From Rhodospirillaceae bacterium (lineage in GTDB: Bacteria > Pseudomonadota > Alphaproteobacteria > UBA8366 > GCA-2717185): DNA of 45,868 bases. Below are positions 8,600 to 32,334 of this stretch, piece after piece. The stretch covers positions 1 to 45,868 of the forward strand of contig JABJJH010000037.1 of NCBI GenBank assembly GCA_018660965.1, given 5' to 3'. A model generated the notes under the pieces. That model saw only the letters and a list, made by a program, of their open reading frames with translations, was not told the origin of the DNA and ran no database searches. Positions within the stretch are counted from its first letter, which is position 1, and each line of letters opens with the position of its first letter. The position numbers were made by a program, and so were the translations under genes.

Positions 8600-9394
8600 A
8601 TGCGGCTTGCAACATGGAACATTAATTCGATTCGATTGCGTATCGATTTATTGAAACGCCTGACTGAAGAGCAATCGCCCGACGTCATTTGTCTGCAGGA
8701 AACCAAGGTAGTGGACGATTTGTTCCCGGCGGACGCGGTTAAGGCCTTGGGCTACCTTCACATCGCGTTTCACGGGATGAAAGGATACAATGGCGTCGCG
8801 ATCTTATCCCGCCAGCCCTTGGAGGCCGTGGAGTCGCTCCAGTGGTGCGGAAAACAGGATTGCCGTCATCTGAGCGCCGTATTGCCAGGTGATATCGAGC
8901 TTCATAACTTCTATGTCCCCGCCGGTGGTGACACGCCCGACCCCGAAGAGAACGATAAATTCGCCCACAAACTGGCGTTTCTCGACGAAATGAACGCCTG
9001 GTTCACCGCCAACAGGTCTTCGAGCCGCAAGATGGTGCTGGTGGGCGATCTGAATATCGCGCCACTGGAATCGGATGTCTGGTCCCACAAACAATTATTG
9101 AAGGTCGTGTCCCATACTCCAATCGAGGTTGAGAAACTAACCGCCATCCAGACACAATCGGATTGGGTCGATGCGGTCCGACAATTTATTCCGGAACCGG
9201 AACGATTGTACAGTTGGTGGAGCTATCGATCCCGCGATTGGACCAAGGGGGACCGGGGGCGACGCCTTGATCATGTCTGGGTCAGCCCGCCCTTACGCGA
9301 TTTTCTATCCGGGGCCACCGTGCTTCGCGACGCGCGGAGCTGGGAAAAACCCTCGGACCATGTTCCGGTCATCGTCGATATAAACACCGACTGA
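8600..9394 (+). CDS. xthA: Exodeoxyribonuclease III
   Basis: MRLATWNINSIR...VICLQETK...GDLNIAP...RLDHVW...SDHVPV; full EEP-fold ExoIII motif set. Confidence 0.92.
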   Translation: MRLATWNINSIRLRIDLLKRLTEEQSPDVICLQETKVVDDLFPADAVKALGYLHIAFHGMKGYNGVAILSRQPLEAVESLQWCGKQDCRHLSAVLPGDIELHNFYVPAGGDTPDPEENDKFAHKLAFLDEMNAWFTANRSSSRKMVLVGDLNIAPLESDVWSHKQLLKVVSHTPIEVEKLTAIQTQSDWVDAVRQFIPEPERLYSWWSYRSRDWTKGDRGRRLDHVWVSPPLRDFLSGATVLRDARSWEKPSDHVPVIVDINTD

Positions 9395-9454: not shown

Positions 9455-9946
9455 CTACACCTTTTGATACCCGTAGTAACGGCCCGCACAAACATCGCTT
9501 GGCACTGCTATCGTTTTAAATTCTGAAATTCGCTCAAGGGATTGATCACAATACACGAACCCGCCTTGGCGAAGGAGGCCTGGCAGGAGCGGCCCTATCG
9601 CCGCGACATTGCGTTCGGTCGCTTCCGCGTCCCCATACCCGATATCGGCATGGATCAGCGCGGCATTCGGGCCCAGTTTCGCCGCCGCCGCAACCAAAGT
9701 GTCCGCCATGGCGCCCAGAAACAACCGATCCTCGGGGGGCCGACAATCGGGATGGGACGCAACTTCCTTGTCGAAAACATAAATGTTACGATTTGGAAAC
9801 AAATTCCGTAAATGATCGTATGTGCGCCCATTGCCGAGCCCAAGCTCCAGAATATGACCCTGTGAGTTACCGATATGGTCGACGGCGGCGTTCAGGCAAC
9901 TCCGTTGCGCCTTCAGGCGGCCAATGACCGCGTCCAGTCGGGACAT
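9455..9946 (-). CDS. Small class I SAM-dependent methyltransferase-like protein
   Basis: ILELGLGNGRTYDHL resembles SAM-binding motif I. 163 aa. The start lies 1 nt after the stop of the upstream cNMP-binding gene, so they are likely coupled. Confidence 0.55.
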   Translation of the reverse strand: MSRLDAVIGRLKAQRSCLNAAVDHIGNSQGHILELGLGNGRTYDHLRNLFPNRNIYVFDKEVASHPDCRPPEDRLFLGAMADTLVAAAAKLGPNAALIHADIGYGDAEATERNVAAIGPLLPGLLRQGGFVYCDQSLERISEFKTIAVPSDVCAGRYYGYQKV

Positions 9947-9947
9947 G

Positions 9948-10400
9948 TTACTGGGAATTCGCCACGGCTTCGCGGAGCCGCACCGTGGTTACTTCAAGCC
10001 GGTGCGCCAGTTCACGCATGATTTCGACCGCAATTTGCGGAAATTCAACGACGAGGCTGAAAAATAAATCCTTGGTGATCCGCAGCGTTGTTACCTCTGT
10101 TTTCGCTTTCACCGTCGCAGTTCGCGGTACATCGCAAAGGATCGCAATCTCGCCAACGATTTCATTTTCGTCCAGTGTCGCCACGACAAGCGGGCCGCCC
10201 GGAGTATCCACCACAACATCGGCTTTCCCACCGATAATGATATACGCCGCATCCCCCGCGTCGCCCTGCTCGAACAACACATCGCCTTCCGCATAGGTCA
10301 GGCGTTCGCTGGTGAACGCCAGCAATTTCAGCTTCGATGGTTCGATTTTCGAGAAAAGTGGAATCTTTCGAAGGAGTTCCACCTCATCCAATAAGCCCAT
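9948..10400 (-). CDS. Stand-alone cyclic-nucleotide-binding (CAP/PKA-type CNB) domain protein, no output domain
   Basis: FEQGDAGDAAYIIIGGKADV...GEIAILCDVPRTATVKA is the phosphate-binding cassette pattern. The 150 aa end right after the C-helix, with no HTH. AGGAG lies upstream of the ATG. Confidence 0.85.
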   Translation of the reverse strand: MGLLDEVELLRKIPLFSKIEPSKLKLLAFTSERLTYAEGDVLFEQGDAGDAAYIIIGGKADVVVDTPGGPLVVATLDENEIVGEIAILCDVPRTATVKAKTEVTTLRITKDLFFSLVVEFPQIAVEIMRELAHRLEVTTVRLREAVANSQ

Positions 10401-10508: not shown

Positions 10509-13175
10509 TTATCCCTCATCCAGCAATGTCTTGAATTCACCGTCTTTCGAGGACAGGTCGTCGAATGACCCACTTTGCGCGACACGGCCATCCTTCATAA
10601 CAATGATTTCATTAAAACTCTTGGCGTCGCCGATGCGGTTTAAGACCCAAACAAGGCCCTTACCCTGCCGTAGCTTCAGGAGGTTCTCTAAAATTTTCAC
10701 CTGAGAAGATTGGTCTAGGCTGACCCCTGCTTCGTTCAGAATCAAAAGCTTAGGATCCTTGATCACCGCGCGCGCAATCGCCAGTTTCTGACGTTGGGCC
10801 TGTGACAAACGCGCGCCGCCAATGCCGGCGGGGAAATCCAGCCCAACCGTGATGACGGTCTGACGTAATTCAAGGCTATCGATGACATCGCCAATCACCG
10901 CGCCCATCTTGGCCGCCGATTGCGCCTGTCCATAAGCCAGTTTGCCAAACAGGATATTGTCCTGCAGCGACGCCGAGGGGTTGTAGGCGTCGACATCGAA
11001 AAAGGCGATCTTGTCGCGCAACGTCTCCGGCAAATCCCTGGCGAAAACCTCACGGGCTTCAAGGATGCGCTCCATCATCCGCTCGTCGATCAAATCGAGA
11101 CGATGACGCGCCGGACTTAACATGAAGGGCAGCGACTCCAGCCTCAGCCGGTCTTCTTCCGTCAACCCCTCCACGCCGCGCGCAGCGCGCCCAAGCAAGG
11201 TCTGGTAGTCCGGCAAGTCTTCGGAATCAATAAAGCTGAACTGTTCAAAAAATTCGTGTCCAGGCGGCAAATCGGCGAACAACTCGACCATGGTCTGCGC
11301 AACATTCTGCCCCATTGTCAGAAAGTCGTCGCTGAGTCCGACCGTGTCGAGAACCTGACGCATATAGGGGTGTTCCGCCAATTTTTCGAGATCGAACGAA
11401 TCGTCCGCGGGCAAGCCAAACAAGATGTTTTCGGCCACCGTCGCATTCGTGTTGAAACGGGATTGATCGAAAGGCTCGATCAGCGGCGCGATTTCCGGTT
11501 CCGACAAGCGGTCGCGCAACAACCGGCGGGCGGACATTATTCGATCCGCGATATCGCCGCGCCGGGTAGGGTCAATCGTCCCCCGCAGCCCCATTTGGTA
11601 GACGTCCTCCGACAAATCCACCATCGACAGCAATTCATTGACCCGTTCCATCATCTCTTCGCGCCCCGACACTCCCGCCGCCGCATAGTCGATCCAGTCC
11701 GCGTTGTAGTCATGCGGCGAATTGCCGGTTACGTCCGCTTCTCCCTTTTCCAACTCGGCCCGTGTGGCCTCCTCGCCGTCGTATTCATGCGCGACCACGG
11801 GACGATGCTTAAGGCCATAAACCAAATTGTCGCCAACGGAAAACGCCTGCAGATACGCACTCGACCCGACATAGGCGATGTCCCGACCGGTAACGGCCTC
11901 GGGCATATTGGCGATGTCCTGGCCCCCGAACAGCACCCTGCCGCTGGTCGGCGTCAGAAGCCGGGCCAAGACTTGAGCCAAGTCGTCCTTTCCGCTGCCG
12001 CTCGCCCCGACAATCGCCAAATGTCCATCGCACTGCGCCGTAAAGGAGACAGCCTCAAGCGAACGCACCCCGTCTTCATCGGAAAGGCTGACGTTGTTGA
12101 CCGCAAGCTCAGCCGTAATGGGCGACGAAGCGGTCGGTTCGTCATGCTGCAGATGTTCTTCCAGCATGCCTTGCGGCTCGAACTGTTCGACCACTTGTTC
12201 ATATTTGATGCGGACATCCTCTTTCTGTTGGTACCAGGCCAACAGTTCCTTCCACGGACTGGCTAAATCCTTGTAGGCGTTCAACACCGCCACCAGTGCG
12301 CCGACGGTTAGTTCGCCTTCGATCACCAGAAAGCCGCCAATGGAAAAGAAAAAGAACGGCGTCAGCTTATCAATGAAATTGTTGAGGAACTTAACGAAGA
12401 ATTTTCGCCGGTAAATTTCATAGCGAATCAGGTAAATCCCGCCCAATCGATTGGCGAAGCGGGCCATTTCCAGATTCGACGTATCATGCGCGTGAATTTC
12501 GCCGATACCCGACACCGATTCGCCAAGATGGTCCGCCAACCGCCGCACGTTCTGGACGCGCTGCTTGCCAAGGGCGTTCACCTTTTTTTGCAATTTCGGG
12601 ATAATGAAGCCTTGCACGGGAATCAGCGCCGCCGCCGCCAAACCAAGCTTCCAGTCCTGCAGCAGGATGTACCCGATAATCAGCGCCAGTTGACCGCCAA
12701 AAAACAACGGGTCGGCGAAAGCGATGCCGATAAACCCGCCCAGCGGCTCGACTTCCGCCGTGATCATCGGAATCAATTCGCCCTGACTGACTTTTTTAAA
12801 ATGCGGAATGGGGAAGCGGAGAATCCTCGTGTAAAGTTGATAGCGTAGCCGCCGCAGCAAGCGTTCCCCCATCCGGCCCTTGAACACGCTGATGTAGTAT
12901 TTGAAGCCGCCGGTTATGAAAACCAGCGCCAAATACGTGAAACTTAAAATAAGCAGAAAGGTCAGCTGCGATACGTCGAATTCGATTTCATACCCGAAAA
13001 TCGGCGCTTCGAATATGTCGCCGCCTGCATTCGGTTTGATCGCCCGGTTGACGATAATCTTTGGCAAATCGAGCGAAACGAACAAAAACGGATAGAACGC
13101 GAGGATCACGCATAACAGATAAATCTGCTGCGCCGCGCTATAGCGCAAAATATATTTGAAGATTGATTTTTCCAT
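10509..13175 (-). CDS. ABC exporter-type fused permease/nucleotide-binding protein with degenerate ATPase motifs and an enlarged NBD
   Basis: About 350 aa N-terminal six-helix ABC exporter TMD. The NBD has Walker A GASGSGKD, signature LSQAQ, Walker B LLILNE, D-loop SLD and H-loop position VLNRI. About 390 aa separate Walker A from the signature motif. Confidence 0.85.
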   Translation of the reverse strand: MEKSIFKYILRYSAAQQIYLLCVILAFYPFLFVSLDLPKIIVNRAIKPNAGGDIFEAPIFGYEIEFDVSQLTFLLILSFTYLALVFITGGFKYYISVFKGRMGERLLRRLRYQLYTRILRFPIPHFKKVSQGELIPMITAEVEPLGGFIGIAFADPLFFGGQLALIIGYILLQDWKLGLAAAALIPVQGFIIPKLQKKVNALGKQRVQNVRRLADHLGESVSGIGEIHAHDTSNLEMARFANRLGGIYLIRYEIYRRKFFVKFLNNFIDKLTPFFFFSIGGFLVIEGELTVGALVAVLNAYKDLASPWKELLAWYQQKEDVRIKYEQVVEQFEPQGMLEEHLQHDEPTASSPITAELAVNNVSLSDEDGVRSLEAVSFTAQCDGHLAIVGASGSGKDDLAQVLARLLTPTSGRVLFGGQDIANMPEAVTGRDIAYVGSSAYLQAFSVGDNLVYGLKHRPVVAHEYDGEEATRAELEKGEADVTGNSPHDYNADWIDYAAAGVSGREEMMERVNELLSMVDLSEDVYQMGLRGTIDPTRRGDIADRIMSARRLLRDRLSEPEIAPLIEPFDQSRFNTNATVAENILFGLPADDSFDLEKLAEHPYMRQVLDTVGLSDDFLTMGQNVAQTMVELFADLPPGHEFFEQFSFIDSEDLPDYQTLLGRAARGVEGLTEEDRLRLESLPFMLSPARHRLDLIDERMMERILEAREVFARDLPETLRDKIAFFDVDAYNPSASLQDNILFGKLAYGQAQSAAKMGAVIGDVIDSLELRQTVITVGLDFPAGIGGARLSQAQRQKLAIARAVIKDPKLLILNEAGVSLDQSSQVKILENLLKLRQGKGLVWVLNRIGDAKSFNEIIVMKDGRVAQSGSFDDLSSKDGEFKTLLDEG

Positions 13176-13443: not shown

Positions 13444-14673
13444 ATGCAGCAACGGAAGTCGCCGCGTGTGCTGATTTACAGCCACGATACGTTTGGTCTG
13501 GGCCATTTGCGGCGATGCAGCGCGATCGCGCACGCCCTGTGCGAAAGCAACGAGGACCTGTCGGTGCTGATCCTGTCAGGCTCGCCCATTATAGGCAGTT
13601 TCGATTTTCGATCCCGCGTCGATTTCGTCAGAATTCCCGGCGTCATTAAGTTGCACAACGGGGAATACACCTCGCTGACACTGCCCATGGCGGTGGACGA
13701 CACCATCGCCATGCGCGCATCGATCATTCAACACACCGCAGAATTTTTCGATCCGGACATATTCATCGTCGATAAAGAACCGTTGGGATTGCGAGGCGAA
13801 CTCGCCGCCACGCTCGACGTTTTGAAAAAACGCGGCGCCCACATCGTCCTTGGTCTCCGCGACGTGCTGGACGAACCACGCTTGCTCGCGCCGGAATGGA
13901 AACGAAAAAACGCCGTCCCCGCGCTGGAAACCTATTACGATGAAATTTGGGTTTATGGCCTGCCGCAAGTCTGCGAACCGCTGGCGGAGATCGACCTGCC
14001 CGACTCGCTTCGGCGTAAAATGATATACACCGGTTATCTAAGACGCTTCGAAGGATCGAAACCGGTCGGGCAGCCCGCCTTCACGAAAACCGACAAGCCC
14101 TACATCCTGGTGACGCCCGGCGGCGGCGGCGACGGCGAAACCCTGGTGGACTGGGTGTTGCGCGCCTATGAAACCGATCACGACCTGCCCTATGCGTCGA
14201 TGATCGTGCTGGGTCCGTTCATGCAATCCGAGCGCCGTTCCGAATTCATCACCCGCGCCGACGCGCTGGACAAGGTCGATGCGATCACCTTTGAAGCCCA
14301 CATGGAAAGCCTGGCCGCCCACGCCGTCGGAATTATCGCCATGGGCGGCTACAACACCTTCTGCGAAATCCTGTCCTTCGACAAAAAGGCCCTAATCGTG
14401 CCGCGCACCGCGCCCCGGTTGGAACAATACATTCGCACCAGCCGCGCGGAAGACCTTGGCCTCGTCAGCATGTTATGCGACGACGGCATTCGCGCGGCGG
14501 AAACCATGGCGACCGCGATTCGGCATCTGCCGCAGCAACAATCGCCGTCCGACATCGTCGTGCCCGGCCTTCTCGACGGGTTGGACAATGTCAATATCCT
14601 GACCCGGCGCATGCTGGAGCGTCGTCCCAAAACAACCCGGCCGGAAATTGCGTCGGCGCGCAAACAGGCTTAG
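13444..14673 (+). CDS. Glycosyltransferase, GT-B fold (MurG/GT28-C-like, COG4671-type)
   Basis: N-terminal RVLIYSHDTFGLGHLRRC and C-terminal AMGGYNTFCEILSFDKKALIVPR (GT28 C-terminal-like nucleotide-sugar pocket). Confidence 0.72.
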   Translation: MQQRKSPRVLIYSHDTFGLGHLRRCSAIAHALCESNEDLSVLILSGSPIIGSFDFRSRVDFVRIPGVIKLHNGEYTSLTLPMAVDDTIAMRASIIQHTAEFFDPDIFIVDKEPLGLRGELAATLDVLKKRGAHIVLGLRDVLDEPRLLAPEWKRKNAVPALETYYDEIWVYGLPQVCEPLAEIDLPDSLRRKMIYTGYLRRFEGSKPVGQPAFTKTDKPYILVTPGGGGDGETLVDWVLRAYETDHDLPYASMIVLGPFMQSERRSEFITRADALDKVDAITFEAHMESLAAHAVGIIAMGGYNTFCEILSFDKKALIVPRTAPRLEQYIRTSRAEDLGLVSMLCDDGIRAAETMATAIRHLPQQQSPSDIVVPGLLDGLDNVNILTRRMLERRPKTTRPEIASARKQA

Positions 14674-14723
14674 GAGCCATCGCCCGGAATGACCAAAAGC
14701 ATAATGAATAGACCCCAGGATTT

Positions 14724-15953
14724 ATGGCGATGGCCGTCGCATTCGTCCTAAAGGGATATCCGAGGCTGTCGGAAACCTTTATCGCCCAGGAAATTAGGGC
14801 CCTGGAACAGCGCGGCCTCGACATACGAATTGTATCCCTTCGCCACCCCACCGACACCGATGCGCACCCGGTGCACCGGGAAATCCAGGCGCCGATTCTT
14901 TATCTTCCCGAATACCTTCACCACGAACCCATGCGCGCGGCGCGCGCGATAATCCACGCCCGGACCTTGCCAGGTTTCGCCGCTGCATTCGCGACATGGC
15001 GAGCGGATTTGCGCCGCGATTTTACGCGAAACCGCATACGCCGGTTTGGCCAGGCCTGTGTGTTGGCGCATGAATTACCGCCAGGGGTCGACAGGCTGCA
15101 CGCCCATTTCCTCCATACCCCGGCGTCGGTCGCGCGTTACGCGGCCATCATGAAAGGCCTGCCTTGGAGCGGGTCGGCCCACGCCAAGGACATCTGGACA
15201 ACGCCCGCATGGGATATTCGGGAAAAACTGGAGTCTCTCGATTGGCTGGTCACCTGCACACAAGCGGGCGCAGACTATTTACAAAGCCTGGCGCCGACCC
15301 CATCGACCGTATCGCTGGTCCATCACGGTCTTGATTTCAGCCGCTTCACGACGCCCGACGCCCGCGAAAAGGTCAAGAATGCGCCCCTGATAATTCTGTC
15401 GGTCGGGCGCGCGGTGGCGAAAAAAGGCTATGACGATTGCCTGCAGGCCCTGGCGTCCTTACCGCCGCAATTGGATTGGCGATTCCGCCATATTGGCGGC
15501 GGCCCGCTATTGAGCGAATTGCGCGAGCGCGCGCGCGGTCTGGGACTGGACGACCGCATTGAATGGCTGGGCGCGCAGCCGCAAAATGTCGTGCTGTCCG
15601 AAATGCGGCGCGCCGACATCTTTGTGCTGCCCAGCAAACAAGCCCCCGACGGCGACCGTGACGGCCTGCCGAACGTCCTGATGGAGGCGCAAAGTCAGCG
15701 TGTAGCCGTGGTCAGCACCCGGCTGTCGGGTATTCCCGAACTTGTCCTCGACAGGGAAACCGGTCTTCTGGTGACGCCCGGCGACGCAAAGGCGTTATCC
15801 AGCGCGCTGCGAAACCTTTTAGAAGACTCGGCCTTGCGGTCCCGGTTGGCGCAGGCCGGTTTCGAAAGGGTCAGGTCCCGGTTTTCAATGGATGACGGCA
15901 TTGATTCGCTATCGAATAATTTTGGCCTGCGGGCGCGGCCCGCCGCCGCCTGA
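14724..15953 (+). CDS. Glycosyltransferase family 4 (WcaL-like)
   Basis: N-terminal GYPRLSETFIAQEI and C-terminal DGLPNVLMEAQSQRVAVVSTRLSGIPELV (E-x7-E region). Confidence 0.85.
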   Translation: MAMAVAFVLKGYPRLSETFIAQEIRALEQRGLDIRIVSLRHPTDTDAHPVHREIQAPILYLPEYLHHEPMRAARAIIHARTLPGFAAAFATWRADLRRDFTRNRIRRFGQACVLAHELPPGVDRLHAHFLHTPASVARYAAIMKGLPWSGSAHAKDIWTTPAWDIREKLESLDWLVTCTQAGADYLQSLAPTPSTVSLVHHGLDFSRFTTPDAREKVKNAPLIILSVGRAVAKKGYDDCLQALASLPPQLDWRFRHIGGGPLLSELRERARGLGLDDRIEWLGAQPQNVVLSEMRRADIFVLPSKQAPDGDRDGLPNVLMEAQSQRVAVVSTRLSGIPELVLDRETGLLVTPGDAKALSSALRNLLEDSALRSRLAQAGFERVRSRFSMDDGIDSLSNNFGLRARPAAA

Positions 15954-17095
15954 TGCATATCGCCTTTTACGCGCCGTTGAAGCCGCCGAGCCATCCGGTT
16001 CCTTCCGGTGATCGCCGCATGGCGCGATTATTGATTAAGGCGCTTCGCGGCGCCGGGCATCGGGTTTCCATCGCGTCCAGGCTGCGCAGTTACGACGGGC
16101 AAGGCGACGCCAAACGCCAGGACGTCATTCGCCGCCGCGCCGCGCGAATCGTCCAAACCTACATCGACAAAATTAAGGGCGAAAACCGCCCGGATATCTG
16201 GTTTACCTATCACCTTTATCACAAGGCGCCCGATCTTCTGGGTCCAACGGTCGCCGAGGCGCTGGCGCTTCCCTATGTCGTCGCCGAAGCGAGCTTCGCC
16301 CCCAAACAAGACCGTGGCCCCTGGCGACGCGGGCATGCGGAAGTCGGAGACGCCCTGCGTCGCACTGCGCGGATCATCATGCTCAACCCCGATGACGCCC
16401 CATGCGTTCGCGCTTTAATCGGCGACAATGACAACGGTCGCCGAATCACCGCCCTGGCGCCCTTTATCGACACCCGTCCGGCCCGGGCGGCGGCTTCAAA
16501 GCGGGCGACGCATCGGGTGGATTTCGCGCGCCGCCTCGGACTGAACCCGAACGTGCCCTGGCTCGCCGTCGTGGCGATGTTGCGGGGTGGCGACAAACGC
16601 GATTCCTATCGGGCCTTGGCCGGGATCATTCGCCGACTGCGCGAGACGCCGCTGCATCTTCTTATTGCAGGCGATGGACCGGCGCGCGCGGAGATCAAAG
16701 GGTTTTTCGGAGACGACCCCCGCATTCGCTGGCTTGGCGAGATAGCAGCGTCGGAAATTGACGCCTTGCACGCCGCCGCCGATCTCGTGGTGTGGCCCGC
16801 CATGCGGGAAGCCTACGGCATGGCGCTTTTGGAAGCACAGGCCGCTGGCGTTCCGGTGGTCGCCGGCGGCGCGCCCGGCGTCCGCCAAATTGTTGCGCAC
16901 GGTGAAACAGGATTGATTGTTCCCATGGACCCCGACTCTCTGGTGACCTGCATGACGGATGCGGTATCGAGTTTGTTGAGCGACGCCGAACGACTGCGCG
17001 CCATGGGCGACGCCGCACTGGAACGCGCACGGCGCTGTCACGATATTGAATCAGCGGCCCAACGATTGAACAAGATTTTGGAAGACGCGATATGA
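15953..17095 (+). CDS. Glycosyltransferase family 4
   Basis: PSGDRRMARLL N-terminal region and EAYGMALLEAQAAGVPVVAG...IVAHGETGLIV. The start overlaps the upstream stop by 1 nt. Confidence 0.85.
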   Translation: MHIAFYAPLKPPSHPVPSGDRRMARLLIKALRGAGHRVSIASRLRSYDGQGDAKRQDVIRRRAARIVQTYIDKIKGENRPDIWFTYHLYHKAPDLLGPTVAEALALPYVVAEASFAPKQDRGPWRRGHAEVGDALRRTARIIMLNPDDAPCVRALIGDNDNGRRITALAPFIDTRPARAAASKRATHRVDFARRLGLNPNVPWLAVVAMLRGGDKRDSYRALAGIIRRLRETPLHLLIAGDGPARAEIKGFFGDDPRIRWLGEIAASEIDALHAAADLVVWPAMREAYGMALLEAQAAGVPVVAGGAPGVRQIVAHGETGLIVPMDPDSLVTCMTDAVSSLLSDAERLRAMGDAALERARRCHDIESAAQRLNKILEDAI

Positions 17096-17703
17096 CTCTG
17101 CTGGCCGTGATCCGGCATGGACCCACCGAATGGAACGAAAAGGGCGTCGTTCAGGGCCACAGCGACATTCCGCTCAGCGCCTCTGGCCGTGTCAGCGTTT
17201 CCGCATGGACCCCGCCGCGCGATCTCGATATCTTTGATTGGGTCGCCAGCCCGTTAAAGCGGGCCCAGGAAACTGCGGTTATTCTGTCCGGGCGGCGCCC
17301 CCGCACCGATGGCCGGCTGACCGAAATGAACTGGGCGGTGTGGGAAGGAAAACGCCTGCCTGAATTGCGCGCGGAACTGGGCGATCTCATGAAGGCGTGG
17401 GAAGCGAAGGGGCTCGATTTTCGCGCGCCCGGCGGCGAAAGCCCACGCGATGTGCAAGACCGCTTGAAGCCTTTCCTCGCCGAATGCGCGGCCAAACGCC
17501 AGGATACCGTTGCCGTGTGTCATAAAGGCGTCCTTCGCGCCCTGTACGCGCTATCGGTATCCTGGGATATGACGGACAAGGCGCCAGAAAAGCTTCACGA
17601 CGAGTGTGTTCATTATTTCCGGCTCGATTCAAACGGCGCGCCCACGCCCCATCGTCTGAACCAGCCGATGACCGATTCTCCAACGGCGTATGGCGGCGGT
17701 TAA
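17092..17703 (+). CDS. Histidine phosphatase family protein (phosphoglycerate-mutase-like)
   Basis: AVIRHGPTEWN (catalytic RHG) and a later VCHKGVLRAL (second catalytic His region). ATGA overlap with the upstream gene. Confidence 0.85.
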   Translation: MTLLAVIRHGPTEWNEKGVVQGHSDIPLSASGRVSVSAWTPPRDLDIFDWVASPLKRAQETAVILSGRRPRTDGRLTEMNWAVWEGKRLPELRAELGDLMKAWEAKGLDFRAPGGESPRDVQDRLKPFLAECAAKRQDTVAVCHKGVLRALYALSVSWDMTDKAPEKLHDECVHYFRLDSNGAPTPHRLNQPMTDSPTAYGGG

Positions 17704-17707
17704 CGGA

Positions 17708-18847
17708 ATGGCGCGGGTCCTTTTCCACGTTCAACATTTGCTGGGCATTGGTCACCAATCACGCGCCGCCGCGATCACGCGCGCCATGACCGCCGCTGGT
17801 CTCGACGTTATTTACGCCACGGGCGGATTTCCCGACTCCACACTCGACCTTGGCGGCGCAAGCGTCGTGCAATTACCGCCCGCCCGCGCCCGCGACGCCA
17901 CTTTCAAAACGGTATTGGACGAAACCGGGCGCCCCATCGACGACGCCTGGGAAACCCGGCGGCGCGAGGCGTTGCTCGCCGCGTATCACACGGCCAAACC
18001 CGACGCCGTCCTCGTCGAAGGGTATCCCTTCGCGCGACGGCGATTTCGCTTCGAGCTATTACCGTTGTTACAAGCCACCAAGGACGACGGCGCACCCGTC
18101 GCAGTGTCGGTGCGGGACATTGTTGCGCAGAAAAGCAGCCCCGCCCGCGCGCAGGAGACCGTTGATATTGTCCAACGTTTTTGTACATCCGTGCTTGTGC
18201 ATGGCGATGCGGCGTTCATTTCGTTCAACGCGACATTTCCCGCCGCAGCCGACATCGCCGATAAAATCCGCTACACCGGCTATGTTTCGCCTCCGTTTAC
18301 ACCCCCCCAGAAAGCTCCAACCCGCGACGGCGTGGTTGTTTCGGTCGGTGGCGGCGCCGTCGGCGGGCCGTTAATACGATGCGCCCTGGCGGCGCGACCG
18401 TTGACCCGCCTCCGCGACGCGCCATGGCGATTTATGACCGGCCCGAACCTTCCTGAACCGGACCGTCGCGCGTTGTCGGCGTCTGACGGCGTTTCAATCG
18501 AACAATTCAGTTCCGATTTTCGCGGCCTGTTGTCGCGCGCCGCCGTGTCGATAAGCCAGGCGGGCTATAATACCGTCATGGATGTACTGATCACCCGCAC
18601 TCCCGCCGTGTTGGTCCCGTTCAGCCAGGAAGGGGAAATCGAACAAACCATTCGAGCCGAATTATTGACCCATCAATCGGGATTCAAATTTGTTCCGGAA
18701 CCGGAATTAACTGCCAAGCGCCTGGCGCTCGCCGTGGACGAGGTCGTTTTCGATACCGCGCCGACAACCTCAATCCACACCATGAACATGGACGGCGCGG
18801 CGGAAACCGCAAAGATTATGCTTCATCTTGCCTCTTTAAAGCGCTGA
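17708..18847 (+). CDS. Glycosyltransferase, GT-B fold (paralog-like of 13444-14673)
   Basis: RVLFHVQHLLGIGHQSR and SQAGYNTVMDVLITRTPAVLVP mirror the motifs of the first glycosyltransferase. The start could also be ATG 17690. Confidence 0.7.
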   Translation: MARVLFHVQHLLGIGHQSRAAAITRAMTAAGLDVIYATGGFPDSTLDLGGASVVQLPPARARDATFKTVLDETGRPIDDAWETRRREALLAAYHTAKPDAVLVEGYPFARRRFRFELLPLLQATKDDGAPVAVSVRDIVAQKSSPARAQETVDIVQRFCTSVLVHGDAAFISFNATFPAAADIADKIRYTGYVSPPFTPPQKAPTRDGVVVSVGGGAVGGPLIRCALAARPLTRLRDAPWRFMTGPNLPEPDRRALSASDGVSIEQFSSDFRGLLSRAAVSISQAGYNTVMDVLITRTPAVLVPFSQEGEIEQTIRAELLTHQSGFKFVPEPELTAKRLALAVDEVVFDTAPTTSIHTMNMDGAAETAKIMLHLASLKR

Positions 18848-18870
18848 TCGAATTCGCTATACAGAATCAC

Positions 18871-19632
18871 ATGCCTCAATTGCGCTACGCCGACGAGCAA
18901 ACAGGTTGGGCCGCGTTCTTCGCGGAACTCGACGCATGGCGTGACGCCGGACGTGTCGCGACGTTCTGGTGGCGCGACGACGATGCGACGGACGAGACCC
19001 CGGCGTTGACGCGCTTGCTGGACATTGCAGGCGACATACCGGTTTCGTTGGCGTCGATCCCCCGCGATGCGACGACCGCGTTGGCGAACGCCATCGCCGA
19101 CCAGCCCAACGTATCGGTGCTTCAGCATGGATATGCGCACACCAATCATGCGCCGCCTCTGGAAAAAAAGGCCGAGTTCGGACCCCACAGGCCCCTTGAT
19201 GCGATGCAACGGGACCTGACGACCGGATTCATACGACTGCGCGACCTTTTCGGTCCCCGCTTCCAGGCGATATTCGTTCCGCCTTGGAATCGAATGGCGG
19301 ATAGCGTCGCGCCCCTGTTACCACAGGTTGGGTTGCAATCGTTTTCAACCTATGGACTGACGCAGAAGTCCCTGGCCGCGCCGCAAGTCAATACACACGC
19401 CGACATCATCAATTGGCGCGGTGGCCGTACCTTTCTGGGGGAAAGCGCCGTCCTCGACCTCATGACAAACCACCTTTCGGCGCGCCGTCGAGGCGACGCG
19501 GCGGAAAATGCGCCAACCGGGCTGTTGACTCATCATTTGGTCCACGATGACGCCTGTTGGCGGTTCACCGGGGATCTGGTGCAGGCCGTCACGGACCACC
19601 CTGCAGCCTCATGGAAAGCGCCGACGGCATGA
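18871..19632 (+). CDS. Polysaccharide-deacetylase-like family protein
   Basis: FWWRDDDAT...LQHGYAHTNHAP...FVPPWNR, a motif pattern I associate with proteins annotated as the polysaccharide deacetylase family in alphaproteobacteria. Family assignment is from memory only. Confidence 0.55.
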   Translation: MPQLRYADEQTGWAAFFAELDAWRDAGRVATFWWRDDDATDETPALTRLLDIAGDIPVSLASIPRDATTALANAIADQPNVSVLQHGYAHTNHAPPLEKKAEFGPHRPLDAMQRDLTTGFIRLRDLFGPRFQAIFVPPWNRMADSVAPLLPQVGLQSFSTYGLTQKSLAAPQVNTHADIINWRGGRTFLGESAVLDLMTNHLSARRRGDAAENAPTGLLTHHLVHDDACWRFTGDLVQAVTDHPAASWKAPTA

Positions 19633-20126
19633 ACGCCGCCCACCAATACCCCCTGAACAGCCTTTACGGCGATTACATTCGCGCGGCGATCGGCGTGGGA
19701 TTTTGCAGTGTCCCTTTATCTTTTGTTAACGACAGCCCAGTATTGTTAACCATTCTTGCCGGAGTCTTATTATTATTCTTGGGCTTTGGCGCGAAGACGG
19801 CCATGCGGCATTTGACCGTCATTCAAACCGAAGAAGAAGGCATCATCGCCAACGGACCATTTGGTCGGCGGATCGCCTGGCGGGATATTAATAAGGTAGC
19901 CCTTAAATTTTATTCGACGCGCCGTGATACTAAAGAAGGTTGGATGCAATTGACGATATTCGGCGCAACGGGAAAATTGACGATCGAATCCTCTTTGGAC
20001 GGGTTCAACGATGTCGCCAATTCCGTCATTCAGGCCGGTTTTCGCAACAACGCGCAAATGGACGAAACGACAATGGAAAATGTCGCCGCCCTGGGCATTG
20101 TCGTTGATATGGCGGATGGAGCGTAA
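19629..20126 (+). CDS. Hypothetical small membrane protein (two predicted helices plus a beta-rich, PH-like C-terminal domain)
   Basis: ATGA overlap with the upstream stop. Hydrophobic stretches [14 protein letters not shown] and [16 protein letters not shown], then [18 protein letters not shown]...[16 protein letters not shown]. Confidence 0.5.
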
Positions 20127-20130
20127 AAGA

Positions 20131-22020
20131 ATGTCGCCCGCCTTGCTCAGCATCGAAAACCTGAAGGTCCAGTTCACCTTGCCCGAAGGTATTATCGAAG
20201 CGGTCAAAGGCGTTTCCTTTCAAATTCAGCAAGGCCAGACCGTAGCTCTGGTCGGTGAATCCGGATCGGGGAAATCCGTCATCTCACAATGCATCATGGG
20301 CATCCTGCCCAAGGCCGCGTCAATTTCGTCGGGCCGGATTTTATACAATGACCCGAAAGACCCGGGAGACGCGATCGACATCGCGGCGCTCAACCCGGAC
20401 AGCGCGGCGATGCGCGCCGTCCGCGGCAGCCACATCTCCATAATTTTTCAAGAGCCAATGACGTCCCTGTCACCGCTGCACACGGTCGGCGATCAGGTCA
20501 GCGAAGCGCTTCATCTGCATCGCAAAACCAGCAGGGCGGAAGGGCTGGAGATCACCCAGGATATGCTGCGTCTAGTCGGATTCCCCGACCCGGCTCGCGC
20601 GCTACGAACCTATCCGTTTGAATTATCCGGTGGTCTGCGGCAACGCACGATGATCGCCATGGCGCTGGTGTGCCGCCCCAGCCTGTTGATCGCGGACGAA
20701 CCGACGACGGCGCTTGACGTCACGATCCAGGCGCAGATCCTCAAATTGCTCCGCGATCTTCAAGGCGAACTCGGTATGGCCGTACTGATGATTACACATG
20801 ACCTTGGCGTCGTCGCCAACATGGCGGAAAACATCGTCGTCATGCATCATGGCGAAGTTATGGAGTCCGGGGGCCTCAACGACATTTTTCGCAATCCCCA
20901 ACACCCCTACCTCAAAGCGCTGCACAAGGCCGTACCGCGCTTCGATTTGGCGCCCGGCGAACGCTTGGTGCCCATTCGCGAAATCGAACATCACAAGGGC
21001 TTCCTTCAAGAAGCAAAGGAGCCTTGGCCGGAAACCGCCGGCGCGGAAGCGCCCCTGCTGAAGGTGGAAAACCTGTCCAAAGCATTCCAGATTCGCAAAA
21101 GCAGCCTCTTCGGCGGCGCGGCGGGACAGGTCAAGGCAGTCGATGGCGTCAGCTTCGAAATCCCCCGCGGCGAATGTCTGGGCCTTGTCGGGGAAAGCGG
21201 CTGCGGCAAAACCACATTGTCGAAAATGCTGATGCGCGCGCTGTCGCCCGATACCGGCGCGGTGACCTATAACGACCGCGGCGCGCTTGTCGATGTGTTG
21301 GCGCTAACACAACATGAATTAACGTCCTTTCGCCGCAAGATGCAGTTTATCTTTCAAGATCCCTTCAGCTCGCTTAATCCCCGCATGCCGGTCTTCGACA
21401 TCATCACCGAACCGCTGGTCATTCATGGAATCGGCGATGACGATAGCCGCCGGGAAGCGGCGCGCGAGTTGATGCGCCTGGTCGGTTTGGACGTTCGGCA
21501 TCTCAACCGCTATCCGCACAGTTTTTCGGGCGGCCAACGCCAACGCATCGGCATTGCCCGCGCCCTGGCGCTGCAACCCGATTTGTTAATTTGCGACGAA
21601 CCGGTCTCCGCGCTGGATGTATCAATTCAGGCGCAAATCCTCAACCTTCTCAAAGATTTGCAGACCGAGCTCGGGCTTACCTATTTGTTCATTTCCCACA
21701 ATTTAGCGGTCGTGAACTATATTGCCGACAACATCGCGGTCATGTGCCACGGGCAACTGGTCGAACAAGCCCCGCGCGACATTTTGTTCAAACGACCAAC
21801 GCACCCCTACACCCAGGCGCTGCTGCAAGCCGTGCCGGAAGCCAATCTGAACGCACCGTTGAATTTCGATCATCTCATGGCGGAAAAGGCGTCCACGCCA
21901 TCACAATGGCCGCACCCCTTCGCCGATTTAGACGGAACCCGCCCTGTTCTGCGGGACATCGGAGATGGCCATATTGTCCGCGCTTTGGCGGACGCCGAAA
22001 TTCGGGAACCAGCATCGTGA
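20131..22020 (+). CDS. Fused double-NBD ABC ATPase of a PepT (peptide/opine/nickel) type importer
   Basis: Two complete cassettes: [28 protein letters not shown] and [31 protein letters not shown] 20131 is preceded by GGAG. Confidence 0.92.
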
Positions 22021-23969
22021 CTTCAGCCTCCTTTCGCGCCGCCCCTTTGTTGATGGCGCTGGCGTTGATGACTGGCGCCATGGCCCCGGTCAGCGCCGTC
22101 GCGGCGTCTTATATCGAAACGCCCGTATTTGCGGCGGACGTTGCGGCGGGAAAATTGCCGCCCGTCGCGGGACGCCTGCCGGAAACGCCCTACCTTCGAC
22201 CCATGAACCAGATGGATCAAACCATCGGGCGCCACGGCGGAACCATGACGATGCTGATGGCGCGACCGAAAGATATTCGGTTGATGATCGTCTATGGCTA
22301 TGCGCGACTGGTCGCATACGGTCGCGACCTTCGAATCGATCCCGATATCTTGCGCGATTTAGAGATTGAGGACGGTCGAAAGTTCACCCTTCACCTTCGG
22401 CCCGGCCATAAATGGTCGGATGGCGCGCCGTTCACCACCGAGGATTTTCGCTATTATTGGGAAGACGTGGCGAACCACGACATGCTGGCGCCGACGGGTC
22501 CGCCAGCCGTGCTGCGTGTGAATGGCAAACCACCGGTCGTCACCATCATCGACGAAACCACCATTCGCTATGAATGGGAAAGTCCGAACCCGGCGTTTCT
22601 GCCGGCCCTTGCCGGCGCGCGCCCGCTATATATCTACCGGCCCGCCCATTACCTTCGCAAATATCACGCGCGCTACAAGGACAAAGCCAAGCTAAACGCC
22701 AAAGCGAAAAAGAAAGGGCAGCGAAACTGGGCGGCCCTGCACAACAAGCTGGACCACCAGTACAAAAACAAAAATATCCGCTTGCCCTCACTTCAGCCCT
22801 GGGTCAACACCACCAAGGGACCGTCGGAACAATACATCTTCAAGCGCAACCCGTATTATCACAAGGTCGACCCGGAAGGCCGCCAATTACCTTATATCGA
22901 TCGCGTCGTCTTTAGCATCGCCAGCGGCAAGATCATTCCCGCCAAGGTGGGAACGGGCCAGGCCGATTTGCAGGCGCGTTATCTGCGCTTTGATAACTTC
23001 ACCTTTCTAAAGCGCAACGAGAAGAAAAGCGGATTTAACACCCGTCTGTGGCGCACCGGCAAGGGCGCGCATATGGCGCTTTTTCCCAACCTCAACACCA
23101 ACGATCCGGTGTGGCGAAAACTACTGCGTGACGTGCGCTTCCGTCGCGCGCTGTCGCTCGCCATCAACCGCCATGAATTAAACCGGGTGATTTATTTCGG
23201 TCTGGCGCTGGAGGCGCAAAACACGGTGCTTCCCGATAGTCCACTATTTCGCGAGCAGTATCAGAAAAGCTGGACCCAATACGATATCGCCGAAGCGAAC
23301 CGGCTGCTTGATTCGATGGGACTGGAAAAGCGCGACAGCCGTGGCATCCGTCTTCTGCCCGATGGTCGCCCGCTTGACATTATCGTTGAATCCACCGGCG
23401 AAAGCACCGAAGAAGCGGATGTTCTGGAGTTGATCCAGGATAGCTGGCGCCTGGTTGGCGCGAAACTACACACCAAACCGACGCAGCGGGAGGTCATGCG
23501 CAACCGCATCTACGCCGGCGAAACCGTTATGGCGATTTCCTCCGGCATGGATAATGGCCTGCCCACCGCCGACATGGATCCAGAAGAACTCGCGCCAACA
23601 TCGCAGGTTCAATATCAATGGCCTAAATGGGGACAGAACCATGAAACCATGGGCCGCACGGGGGAGGCGATCGACATGCCCGAGCCGAAGCGGTTAAAGG
23701 CGCTTCATGAACAATGGCTGCGCGCCACGTCAAGCGAAACCCGGGAGATGATCTGGCATGACATGCTGGCGATCCACGCCGGTCAACTTTATTCCATTGG
23801 TCTTATTGCAGGCGTCCTCCAACCCGTCGTAGTGCGCACGACAATGCGCAACGTGCCGGTCCAAGGCATCTATACATGGTTGCCCTGCGCGCAATTCGGC
23901 ATGTACGAACCAGACAGTTTCTGGTTCGCCGACGCCGCCGCTCCGATAAAACAAGCCGCATCCAGGTAA
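22017..23969 (+). CDS. ABC transporter substrate-binding protein, family 5
   Basis: Signal-like N-terminus ([20 protein letters not shown]) and a long SBP_bac_5-like body ([11 protein letters not shown]..., [10 protein letters not shown]). GTG 22017 overlaps the ATPase stop (GTGA). Confidence 0.88.
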
Positions 23970-23981
23970 GGCAAAGGCATA

Positions 23982-24980
23982 ATGCTCGAGTATATCGCCC
24001 GCCGCATTCTGGTGATGATCCCAACGCTGCTGGTGATCAGCGCATTGGTTTTCATCATCATCCAGTTGCCGCCCGGCGACTATTTCACGACCTACATGAA
24101 TGAGCTGCAAAGCCGCGGCGAATCCATCGACGAAGCAAAGATCGCATTCATCAAGCAGCAATACGGTTTCGATAAATCGATGGTGGAGCAATATTTCACC
24201 TGGGTGGTGGGCATGCTGCATGGCGATTTTGGCTATTCCTTCGAATACAGTCAACCGGTGTCGGATGTCATCGGCGACCGTTTGCTTTTAAGTTTCATCG
24301 TGTCGTTTACGACAATTGTGTTTACCTGGATCGTGGCGTTTCCGATTGGCGTTTATTCGGCCGTGCGGCAATACAGCATCGGCGATTACAGCCTGACGTT
24401 TCTTGGTTTCCTGGGATTGGCGACGCCAAATTTTCTACTGGCGCTGGTGCTGCAATGGCTCGCGTTCAGCACGTTCGGCACGTCCATCGGCGGCCTGATG
24501 GACCCGCAATACATCGAGGCCGGGTGGTCGCTCGACAAGGCGATGTCGATCCTCGAACATCTTTGGGTGCCGGTTCTGGTCATCGGGACGTCGGGTACGG
24601 CGGGCATGATCCGGCGACTGCGCGCCAATCTTCTGGACGAATTGAACAAGCAATATTACGTGACCGCGCGCGCCAAGGGGTTGCCGCCGGGCCGGGCGCT
24701 TTTTAAATATCCATTGCGCATGTCGTTGAACCCGTTCATCGCGGATATCGGCAATTTGTTGCCCGAAATTATTTCCGGAGCCGCGATCGTGTCCATTGTG
24801 CTGTCGCTCCCGACCACGGGACCGATGCTGCTGACCGCGCTGCAAAGCCAGGACATGTATCTCGCCGGGTCGTTCCTGATGTGCCTGGCGACGCTGACCG
24901 TCATCGGCACGCTGCTGTCCGATTTAGCGCTGGCTGCGCTTGATCCGCGCATTCGGCTTGGCGGAGGGGCGAGCCGATGA
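23982..24980 (+). CDS. ABC transporter permease (DppB/OppB-like)
   Basis: MLEYIARRILVMIPTLLVISALVFIIIQLPPGD opening and the permease EAA-region YYVTARAKGLP. Confidence 0.92.
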   Translation: MLEYIARRILVMIPTLLVISALVFIIIQLPPGDYFTTYMNELQSRGESIDEAKIAFIKQQYGFDKSMVEQYFTWVVGMLHGDFGYSFEYSQPVSDVIGDRLLLSFIVSFTTIVFTWIVAFPIGVYSAVRQYSIGDYSLTFLGFLGLATPNFLLALVLQWLAFSTFGTSIGGLMDPQYIEAGWSLDKAMSILEHLWVPVLVIGTSGTAGMIRRLRANLLDELNKQYYVTARAKGLPPGRALFKYPLRMSLNPFIADIGNLLPEIISGAAIVSIVLSLPTTGPMLLTALQSQDMYLAGSFLMCLATLTVIGTLLSDLALAALDPRIRLGGGASR

Positions 24981-30812: not shown

Positions 30813-30821
30813 GACGGATCG

Positions 30822-31904: not shown

Positions 31905-32310
31905 CTTCGCGGATGGCCGCTTCGTAGGCGGCCCAGGCGTCTGGTTTTTCGCGCAAGGTCACGCCAACCCGCGCCACCTGATCCACCGCATCGCCACCCA
32001 ATCGATCTTCGCGAATTCCAGCGACAAAACGGTCGAAGATATCTTTCGCCAGGACTTCCGTGGTTGTGTTGCGTCCCGTAAATTCCGGCAAGTCGTCAAG
32101 ATTTCGATACGATAGCGGCGCCAGCACGTCGCCCAATAATGCCGCCGCACGGCCAATATCGGCGACAATGCCATTTTCATCCAGGGTGCGGCGGGACATC
32201 GTTATTTCCACCACATAGGTGGCGCCGTGCAACCGTTGCGCCGGACCGAAGATATCCCCTGCAAGCGAATGTGCTATCATCACGCTATTGGATACGGTCA
32301 CGCTGAACAT
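31897..32310 (-). CDS. 6-pyruvoyl-tetrahydropterin / 6-carboxytetrahydropterin synthase (PTPS/QueD) fold protein, non-canonical active site
   Basis: 137 aa. IAHSL...RLHGATYVVE...YRNLDD...NTTTEVLAKDIF follows the QueD/PTPS layout, but the HGH motif reads HGA and the usual Cys is absent. Confidence 0.78.
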   Translation of the reverse strand: MFSVTVSNSVMIAHSLAGDIFGPAQRLHGATYVVEITMSRRTLDENGIVADIGRAAALLGDVLAPLSYRNLDDLPEFTGRNTTTEVLAKDIFDRFVAGIREDRLGGDAVDQVARVGVTLREKPDAWAAYEAAIREDG

Positions 32311-32334
32311 AAAGTCGGCCTCCGGATTGATCTC

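Follow-up and report, generated by a model that had tools for sequence, protein, structure and literature searches.

An apparently uncharacterised and widespread module of glycosyltransferase, deacetylase, ABC half-transporter and importer genes in Alphaproteobacteria and other bacteria

In this study, we analysed 45,868 nucleotides of DNA (the window; contig JABJJH010000037.1 of assembly GCA_018660965.1) from a marine metagenome-assembled "Rhodospirillaceae bacterium", which carry a module of about 17 kb containing sugar enzymes and transport genes; exact protein matches are MBT5107322-30. A preliminary description had reported seven co-directional genes with gaps of no more than 50 nt, and all seven open reading frames (ORFs) were confirmed on the + strand. 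They encode a GT-B glycosyltransferase of the COG4671 type (GT28a, 13444-14673), a WcaL/EpsE-like GT4 glycosyltransferase (GT4a, 14724-15953), a second GT4 glycosyltransferase (GT4b, 15953-17095), a branch 1 histidine phosphatase (17092-17703), a GT-B glycosyltransferase with a MurG-like C-terminal domain (GT28b, 17708 or 17690 to 18847), a 253-aa deacetylase of predicted CE4 fold with NodB homology (18871-19632) and a 165-aa small membrane protein (19629-20126). The junctions between them measure, in order, +50, -1, -4 (ATGA), +4 or -14, +23 and -4 (ATGA) nt. The start codon of GT28b is ambiguous, being placed at 17690 by the JGI call and at 17708 by the NCBI call. The phosphatase gene had been said to lie in ATGA overlaps on both sides; this holds for the upstream junction, whereas the downstream one depends on which ATG starts GT28b.

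These seven genes are only one portion of the module, and the operon, which had been taken to end at 20126, continues to 26134 with a Yej/Opp-type ATP-binding cassette (ABC) importer. After a gap of 4 nt there follows the gene of a fused double ATPase of the Yej/Opp/Gsi type, with two ABC_tran and oligo_HPY domains (20131-22020, +); its ORF opens at 20011, and the start that fits the relatives and the NCBI call is 20131. The gene of a periplasmic binding protein (SBP_bac_5, 185 bits; 22017-23969, +) overlaps the ATPase stop with its GTG start at 22017, and a signal peptide is visible in the translation. Two permease genes (BPD_transp_1 with BPD_transp_1_N and OppC_N; 23982-24980 and 24977-26134, +) overlap each other by 4 nt. 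In total, 11 co-directional genes lie between 13444 and 26134, every gap is 50 nt or less, and five start/stop overlaps occur. Terminator-like sites within the operon are no more frequent than in shuffled sequence, and nothing above chance came out when the locus and the intergenic region between the divergent operons were scanned with Rfam and for tRNAs, promoters, terminators and inverted repeats.

Three genes are transcribed divergently from this operon. They encode an 888-aa half-transporter of the ABCB/MsbA type (10509-13175, -; ABC_membrane and split ABC_tran matches), a single-domain cyclic nucleotide-binding (cNMP-binding) protein of 150 aa (9948-10400, -; Pfam cNMP_binding, 70 bits) and, as the last gene, a PF12692 (Methyltransf_17) S-adenosylmethionine (SAM) methyltransferase (9455-9946, -; 166 bits). 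Convergent with the end of the 11-gene operon lies a class III adenylate/guanylate cyclase gene (26139-27485, -; Guanylate_cyc, 44 bits). The preliminary description had seen no canonical polysaccharide assembly or export genes, and this stands: Pfam scans of the large window ORFs showed no priming phosphoglycosyltransferase, Wzx/Wzy, Wza/Wzc or Wzm/Wzt, and no outer-membrane export, polymerase or chain-length genes were found in the Pfam scans of window ORFs.

Several neighbouring genes were also recorded. An endonuclease/exonuclease/phosphatase-family gene (8600-9394, +) adjoins the methyltransferase end of the divergent operon and is in the same place in two related loci (L081 and L082) and in five others. 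Directly past the cyclase gene is a Methyltransf_24/Lactamase_B_2 pair (27557-28405 and 28402-29235, both -), which is syntenic in 13-14 of the related loci that extend that far and may be a member of the module or a conserved neighbourhood only. Further on, the region 30018-33315 (-) holds an extra GT4 glycosyltransferase gene (30822-31904) between two ORFs without a Pfam match (30018-30812 and 32335-33315), and this region is not kept beside the module in other loci.

The family assignments of the four transferases and the phosphatase were borne out. The products of the genes at 14724 and 15953 are GT4 enzymes (Glycos_transf_1, 115 bits, and Glyco_trans_1_4, 82 bits), the phosphatase matches His_Phos_1 with 133 bits, and the product read from 17690 matches Glyco_tran_28_C with 47 bits. 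GT28a is near the threshold of the same domain (21 bits, slightly below the cut-off of 22 bits) and is a paralogue of GT28b (25% identity, E 6e-9). The structure model of GT28a has a predicted local distance difference test (pLDDT) score of 72.5, and its best fold matches are GT1-type GT-B enzymes, namely plant UDP-glycosyltransferases, GtfA/B, CalG and YojK. Such enzymes glycosylate small or lipophilic acceptors, and the matches of this model may serve as weak evidence about the acceptor. The PDB matches of GT28b to MurG are weak, and no useful match came from PDB sequence searches with GT28a (as single sequence and as profile) or with the profile of the deacetylase. GT28a is the most conserved gene of the module, and its relatives show 66-86% identity to the window protein across many Alphaproteobacteria.

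For GT4a, the NCBIfam scores are 145 bits for EpsE (cut-off 400) and 119 bits for WcaL (cut-off 538). The best PDB relatives of GT4b are MshA (3c4q, 68 bits), BshA, a sucrose-phosphate synthase and GlgM, and PimA/B and WaaG are also found; the match spans only the C-terminal, donor-binding half. Against NCBIfam, GT4b scores 65 bits for MshA (cut-off 462) and 71 bits for BshA (cut-off 274), and sucr_P_syn_N scores are 24-38 bits against a cut-off of 576. The glucosyl-3-phosphoglycerate synthase family gave no match in the Pfam or NCBIfam scans. All NCBIfam matches of the module proteins are far below the equivalog cut-offs. When the sequences of the four transferases were inspected, no membrane anchor was predicted in any of them.

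The deacetylase of the window has no Pfam match and does not reach the PF01522 threshold; among its relatives, 12/23 match DUF2334 weakly and 2/23 match Polysacc_deac_1 (PF01522) weakly. It had been described as deacetylase-like, and the AlphaFold model, built on 23 relatives with a pLDDT of 91, agrees with this. The top Foldseek matches are CE4 enzymes, that is, a mycobacterial polysaccharide deacetylase, acetylxylan esterases, and peptidoglycan and chitin deacetylases (E 1e-7 to 1e-5, TM-scores about 0.55-0.6). Residues D36-D38, H86, H90, R141 and H221/H222 are invariant, and their positions are those of the CE4 metal-binding and catalytic motifs. Model and invariant residues together point to the deformed beta/alpha-barrel, the Asp-His-His metal site and the catalytic Asp and His positions of this family. 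Because the protein has neither an N-terminal hydrophobic segment nor a signal peptide, it is predicted to be cytoplasmic.

The catalytic residues R8, H9, R57, E78 and H144 of the histidine phosphatase are invariant in 63-65 of 65 orthologues, and its gene is translationally coupled to GT4b by the ATGA overlap. Against the PDB, phosphoserine phosphatase (PspA), glucosyl-3-phosphoglycerate phosphatase (GpgP) and alpha-ribazole phosphatase (CobC) score alike at 42-50 bits, so that the substrate is not readable from the sequence; the 44 bits for GpgP are not above those of unrelated phosphatases. The methyltransferase has a single solved relative, the structural-genomics entry 3IHT, and its gene directly follows the deacetylase gene in roseobacters. 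The small membrane protein, whose gene overlaps the deacetylase gene by ATGA, had been recognised as such before; two N-terminal hydrophobic helices can be read from its sequence, followed by a soluble domain, and it has a weak STM3941-family match.

The half-transporter has unexpected features. Its best NCBIfam match is MsbA with 198 bits, far under the cut-off of 602 bits, and its best PDB relatives are ABCB4, ABCB1, BmrA, MsbA and NdvA. The nucleotide-binding domain carries an insertion of about 290 aa, which is confined to this transporter family and matches nothing in Pfam. The Walker A lysine and the signature serine are about 395 residues apart, compared with about 105 in a canonical relative on an E. 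coli plasmid (GPSGAGKS ... LSGGQ ... FILLDE), and the spacing is 389-400 residues in 44/45 orthologues. The ATPase motifs are degenerate in all 45 orthologues (GxxGSGK[D/E], hhhhNE and LSxxQ). At the Walker A lysine position there is K in 30, R in 9 and another residue in 6 of them; the following residue is Asp or Glu in 30/45, with just 6 having Ser or Thr, Asn stands in place of the Walker B Asp in 35/45, and the H-loop His is retained in only 15/45. Three copies of a short motif, [DE]N[IL]x[FY]G, are present (at 449, 582 and 739). A tandem duplication of the helical subdomain was considered as the origin of the insertion and was not retained, being weak: the motif recurs three times and no significant segment similarity was found.

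Judged by these motifs, a homodimer with two such degenerate sites would probably not work as a conventional pump driven by ATP. The cNMP-binding gene adjoins the half-transporter gene in nearly every locus having the latter, and this constant pairing suggests that the nucleotide-binding domain has turned regulatory. No DNA-binding domain was detected in the cNMP-binding protein. The cyclase gene is at the same place in loci L083 and L084 and in several others, and cyaA genes lie beside the rhizobial versions. These features suggest cyclic-nucleotide control of the module at the protein level.

The importer has all the parts of a Yej/Opp/Dpp-type system, that is, an SBP_bac_5 protein with a signal peptide, two BPD_transp_1 permeases and an oligo_HPY ATPase. 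The ATPase scores 603 bits for GsiA and 524 bits for YejF, both below cut-off, and with a YejF cut-off of 834 bits it does not qualify as an orthologue of YejABEF proper. The closest solved relatives of the binding protein are 5ipw, an "oligopeptide-binding" entry (276 bits), SPH1118 (232 bits), which we take to bind pectin oligosaccharides, and the alpha-galactoside-binding protein 6epy (103 bits), and classical peptide binders score below 50 bits. From these similarities, the importer probably carries a sugar rather than a peptide. In Sinorhizobium meliloti, the chromosomal yejABEF genes are smc02829-32 (PMC5539429), and the importer genes on pSymB differ from them, which indicates that the module has an importer paralogue of its own.

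At E ≤ 0.001, at least 4799 proteins belong to the deacetylase family; when one genome per species was scanned, relatives turned up in at least 587 species. The module proteins were mapped onto 80 retained loci, and the 43 loci whose flanks reach 9 kb or more upstream and 6.7 kb or more downstream formed the complete set, in which presence was judged within 10 kb. The neighbourhood check proposed in the preliminary description showed a co-conserved block: the module genes are linked in all 43 fully flanked loci from other species, which is far beyond chance. The four transferases and the deacetylase each occur in 95-100% of these loci: GT28b is present in 100%, GT4a and GT4b in 98% each, GT28a in 95%, any Yej gene in 86%, the phosphatase in 84% (missing in 7/43), the methyltransferase in 70%, the exporter and the cNMP protein in 67% each, and the small membrane protein in 56%. 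The exact order GT28a-GT4a-GT4b-phosphatase-GT28b-deacetylase occurs in 30/43, and the same 4-nt overlaps, from the phosphatase through the importer, are found in the gene calls of relatives.

Other lineages have rearranged the set. In Gammaproteobacteria, including Marinobacterium zhoushanense (L052), GT28a, GT28b and the deacetylase are on one strand and GT4b, GT4a and the importer, in some cases with the exporter, are rearranged; the gene set is also relinked in other orders and orientations in Betaproteobacteria. In some Rhodospirillales (L017 and L048), the exporter and cNMP genes are located between GT28b and the deacetylase. The megaplasmid of Ruegeria sp. TM1040 has the order importer, CoA transferase, divergent MscS channel, six enzymes and methyltransferase, and in the roseobacter versions the importer is about 4 kb away from the enzymes. 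A large MscS-family channel gene is divergent from GT28a in two roseobacters (L073, 869-4785, and L085, 9184-11538); in the Ruegeria locus L073, a gene for a 467-aa protein without a Pfam match is placed between the channel gene and GT28a, and in TM1040 a phosphonate C-P lyase cluster comes after the module.

Homologues of GT28a were found on 275 plasmid records, mostly of Rhizobium (143) and Sinorhizobium (80). Azospirillum and Skermanella have GT28a homologues as well, and the module is also present in Inquilinus. On the plasmids of Shinella (pShin-02, L087), Rhizobium etli CIAT 652 (pA, L088) and S. meliloti, the order is cyclase, importer, GT28a, GT4a, GT28b, exporter and cNMP protein; L089 is also a rhizobial plasmid locus, and the copy of S. 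meliloti 1021 is at pSymB 837144-838358. GT4b and the deacetylase are nearby in Shinella and S. meliloti, whereas neither was found in R. etli over a range of 14 kb. The Shinella and R. etli versions have the methyltransferase, with a nucleotide-sugar dehydrogenase gene nearby in each, and the histidine phosphatase is absent from all three Rhizobiaceae plasmid versions mapped. The preliminary description had named the divergent atypical ABC exporter as the obvious partner of the enzymes, and we agree: it is co-conserved, and it lies inside the transferase operon in Rhizobium, Shinella and some Rhodospirillales. A distant cluster on the E. coli plasmid pCFSAN004180G (L091, 11998-22176) has GT28, GT4 and GT4 genes, a canonical ABC exporter, two kinase-like proteins, an alginate-export-family outer-membrane protein and a nucleotide-sugar dehydrogenase. 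This cluster adjoins K88 fimbrial genes and an S6 (SPATE-type) peptidase gene.

No characterised homologue or functional study of the module was found in the accessible literature, where an older characterisation outside open access is possible. Similarly, NCBIfam, the PDB, a tblastn search of pSymB and the accessible literature gave no match to a characterised exopolysaccharide, lipopolysaccharide-core or compatible-solute locus, a match that would have spoken against the preliminary description. Source annotations name the module proteins "glycosyltransferase", "polysaccharide deacetylase" or "hypothetical". R. etli CIAT 652 labels GT28a redA ("membrane-anchored protein") and GT4a redB, and these names were not found together with Rhizobium in the accessible literature.

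Three described clusters of S. meliloti were compared with the module. The msbA2 operon (SMb21188-SMb21191, at 938 kb) likewise combines glycosyltransferases with an MsbA-like exporter on pSymB and has an uncharacterised product (PMC3687685). It is not the module, for tblastn of the 920-960 kb region of pSymB gave no homologue of the transferases or of the deacetylase, and the module copy lies at 837 kb. The Clr-regulated nodP2-smb21248 cluster (PMC5498481) and the smb21252-71 "PPP" cluster (PMC10128002) are also different loci.

The only experimental trace that we found is the RNA sequencing supplement on a rosR mutant of Rhizobium leguminosarum bv. trifolii, in which no function was proposed for the Rt622 region (PMC4696191). 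The gene order of Rt622_21-33 agrees with the R. etli map. In the mutant, the cyclase gene Rt622_21 changed by log2 -6.3, the COG4671 glycosyltransferase gene Rt622_26 fell from 71 to 0 fragments per kilobase per million, the cNMP-binding gene Rt622_30 changed by log2 -7.2, and cyoAB (Rt622_32/33) changed by log2 -6.9 and -7.7 (PMC4696191). These counts show that the module is expressed in the free-living wild type. The region is perhaps silent in the mutant, or perhaps deleted, given that the near-zero counts reach the unrelated cyo genes.

We then compared the module with known systems. The mycothiol and bacillithiol pathways (MshA - MshA2 phosphatase - MshB; BshA - BshB) resemble it in uniting a retaining GT4 enzyme, a phosphatase and a deacetylase in one pathway. 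However, GT4b is far below the MshA and BshA cut-offs, the deacetylase is of the CE4 fold by its model and not of the LmbE type, and no cysteine ligase was found among the scanned window ORFs. Moreover, the module adds three transferases, an exporter and an importer, and its phosphatase is dispensable in many lineages. In the glucosylglycerate pathway (GpgS/GpgP), a histidine-phosphatase-family enzyme likewise stands beside a glycosyltransferase, but the module has no GpgS-family match, its GpgP score of 44 bits is unremarkable and its locus is much larger. With regard to GpgS/GpgP, SPS/SPP and MfpS/MfpP, no synthase of the module reaches the family cut-off, and the phosphatase is not obligatory, as it is absent in 7/43 complete loci.

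In the Nod-factor pathway (NodC, NodB, NodS and NodIJ), an oligosaccharide is synthesised in the cytoplasm, a cytoplasmic CE4 deacetylase and a SAM methyltransferase act on it, and the small glycan is exported by an ABC transporter. This logic parallels the roles in the module. In contrast to that pathway, the module has a methyltransferase of PF12692 in place of one of the NodS family, a type IV half-transporter in place of NodIJ, and an importer in addition; no GT2 chitin-oligosaccharide synthase of the NodC type, NodA acyltransferase or ABC-2-type (NodIJ) exporter domain was found in the scanned window ORFs. MsbA, PglK and NdvA/ChvA, which export lipids, lipid-linked glycans and cyclic glucan, are the closest named relatives of the half-transporter and share its architecture of transmembrane and nucleotide-binding domains. 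As in MsbA/PglK-type systems, a type IV ABC half-transporter is genetically linked to transferases; unlike them, the half-transporter has the long insertion, degenerate motifs and a cNMP-binding partner, and the canonical Walker A, Walker B, signature and H-loop motifs are not conserved across the 45 orthologues. The importer has the same four components as YejABEF and YejBEF-YepA (fused double ATPase, SBP_bac_5 protein and two permeases), yet it is a dedicated paralogue that travels with glycosyltransferase genes and scores below the equivalog cut-offs. Among sugar-binding relatives such as SPH1118 and MelB, SPH1118 and an alpha-galactoside-binding protein are among the closest solved binding proteins.

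From the gene content, the folds, the conserved catalytic residues and the co-conservation, we infer each step of a pathway that we hold tentatively, in which a short glycan or glycoconjugate with a de-N-acetylated amino sugar would be made in the cytoplasm and exported under the control of cyclic nucleotides, after which the cell would take it back. Four soluble GT-B transferases, two GT1/GT28-like and two GT4, would build a short cytoplasmic glycan or glycoside on the scale of a tetrasaccharide. At least one residue would be added as an N-acetyl-hexosamine and then be de-N-acetylated by the cytoplasmic CE4 enzyme, and the PF12692 methyltransferase may methylate the amine so released or a different position. 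Where present, the histidine phosphatase would take a phosphate off the product of the coupled GT4b. The ABCB-type half-transporter would carry the finished molecule over the inner membrane, its unusual nucleotide-binding domain probably being controlled by the cNMP-binding protein and the neighbouring cyclase, and the co-operonic importer would recover the released molecule or a fragment.

A small exported molecule is proposed rather than a polymer because polymerase, chain-length and outer-membrane export genes are missing, and because a dedicated importer, distinct from the housekeeping yejABEF, travels with the enzymes and its named nearest solved relatives bind sugars. The closest solved relatives of GT4b use UDP-GlcNAc or small acceptors, which is in line with this proposal, and the nucleotide-sugar dehydrogenases of the rhizobial and E. 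coli clusters, together with the alginate-export-type outer-membrane protein of the latter, point to an exported carbohydrate. Some points weigh against it. The degenerate Walker A, Walker B, signature and H-loop motifs make ATP-driven export by the half-transporter doubtful, and the exporter (67%) and the importer (86%) are not universal within 10 kb, which is partly due to distance limits and contig ends. Yej/Opp importers are usually peptide carriers, and it is a similarity of about 230 bits only that speaks for a sugar ligand. The chemistry of the product is deduced in its entirety from the genes, and the drop of the rhizobial region in the rosR mutant says nothing on function. The acceptor could also be a lipid, since some enzymes of the GT28 and GT4 families use diacylglycerol or lipid-linked acceptors and the exporter is similar to lipid flippases.

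The chief competing explanation, which we regard as possible but rather unlikely, is a lipid-anchored glycan. Here a short oligosaccharide would be built on diacylglycerol, on polyprenyl phosphate primed by a housekeeping enzyme or on an acceptor like lipid A or core, and be flipped to the outer leaflet in the manner of MsbA or PglK, with the importer serving recycling or being an unrelated neighbour. The ABCB/type IV fold of the exporter fits this, its named relatives being flippases (MsbA, PglK, ABCB4 and NdvA), as do the small membrane protein encoded in the operon, the failure to find outer-membrane export genes and the membership of MurG, MGDG synthase, PimA and WaaG in the GT28 and GT4 families, the last two being among the PDB hits of GT4b. 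The preliminary description had read the missing priming transferase as a sign against a lipid carrier; we do not follow it, as absence from the locus does not exclude such a carrier, and ABC-dependent glycan loci are often without a priming enzyme of their own. However, none of the transferases has a predicted membrane anchor, GT28a finds its best fold matches in small-molecule GT1 enzymes and not in MurG, the degenerate ATPase motifs are unlike those of a conventional flippase, and a dedicated importer that travels across phyla and onto plasmids is hard to explain in this way. That importer is also the starting point of a different and quite improbable explanation, in which an external oligosaccharide, glycopeptide or peptide is taken in, deacetylated, dephosphorylated, glycosylated, and expelled or stored, for salvage, detoxification or signal editing. 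The importer and the enzymes do form one translationally coupled operon, CE4 enzymes act on peptidoglycan and chitin fragments, and microcin C, antimicrobial peptides and muropeptides are known cargoes of Yej systems (PMC9790009, PMC10128002). In contrast, four biosynthetic GT-B transferases in an operon with no glycoside hydrolase, kinase or amidase point to synthesis, and in roseobacters the importer stands about 4 kb apart from the enzymes.

The preliminary description had itself suggested that the locus may build an oligosaccharide or glycoside on a phosphorylated small-molecule acceptor. The coupling of GT4b to the phosphatase and the relatives of GT4b that act on small acid or phosphorylated acceptors keep a part of this idea alive, but the phosphatase is dispensable and ambiguous in specificity; as it is missing in 7/43 complete loci and in the three Rhizobiaceae versions, the phosphorylated-acceptor step cannot define the pathway. 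The full form of this idea is a cytosolic glycoside or compatible solute, made on a phosphorylated small acceptor by a GT4 enzyme, then dephosphorylated by the histidine phosphatase, and staying inside the cell, in analogy to glucosylglycerate, sucrose-phosphate or mycothiol chemistry. The ATGA overlap, the relatives MshA, BshA, sucrose-phosphate synthase and GlgM, the presence of glucosyl-3-phosphoglycerate phosphatase among the top PDB hits of the phosphatase, the invariant catalytic residues and the mechanosensitive channel gene beside the module in two roseobacters would all suit it. We consider it hardly probable, for the phosphatase is absent in 16% of the complete loci and in the three Rhizobiaceae versions mapped, four transferases with a deacetylase and a methyltransferase exceed the needs of any known solute pathway, the module has its own exporter and importer, and the synthase scores are far under their cut-offs (MshA 65/462, BshA 71/274, SPS 38/576 bits). 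It is highly improbable that the genes are no functional unit and stay neighbours through inherited synteny only: most of the 80 retained loci are from Alphaproteobacteria, so that synteny could be inherited, but the set is relinked in different orders and orientations in Gamma- and Betaproteobacteria and on mobile plasmids and megaplasmids, and the start/stop overlaps are conserved in relatives.

Thus, the observation of the preliminary description is confirmed, and its interpretation is partly supported. It had overlooked the importer, the methyltransferase and the cyclic-nucleotide parts, and with them the product looks less like a cytosolic solute and more like a molecule that is exported and imported again. 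A bolder form of our exported-glycan proposal, which we think unlikely, is that the product is a small diffusible glycan signal or public good, an oligosaccharide whose amino sugar is de-N-acetylated and possibly N-methylated by a logic like that of Nod factors. Its release would be gated by cyclic AMP or cyclic GMP through the cNMP-binding protein, which would act on the half-transporter with its degenerate ATPase as a regulatory domain, the importer closing a sensing or recycling loop. If true, marine Rhodospirillales, roseobacters and rhizobia would share a widespread system for signalling to other cells or to a host.

We conclude that the module is real and widespread and that it represents an apparently uncharacterised form of glycan assembly in the cytoplasm with export by an ABC transporter, which is distinguished by its coupled importer, its cyclic-nucleotide parts and the degenerate ATPase of its exporter. 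The module occurs in at least 587 species-level genomes, and its hosts include tractable and ecologically important bacteria such as S. meliloti (pSymB), R. leguminosarum and R. etli (plasmids), Ruegeria sp. TM1040, Inquilinus and Marinobacterium, and the genetic systems available in several of them make the question directly testable. The identity of the product would add a glycoconjugate to the envelope or secretome of a large share of Alphaproteobacteria, would assign a function to a paralogue of the Yej/Opp-type importers, and would explain a family of half-transporters with a systematically degenerate ATPase that is paired with a cNMP-binding protein.

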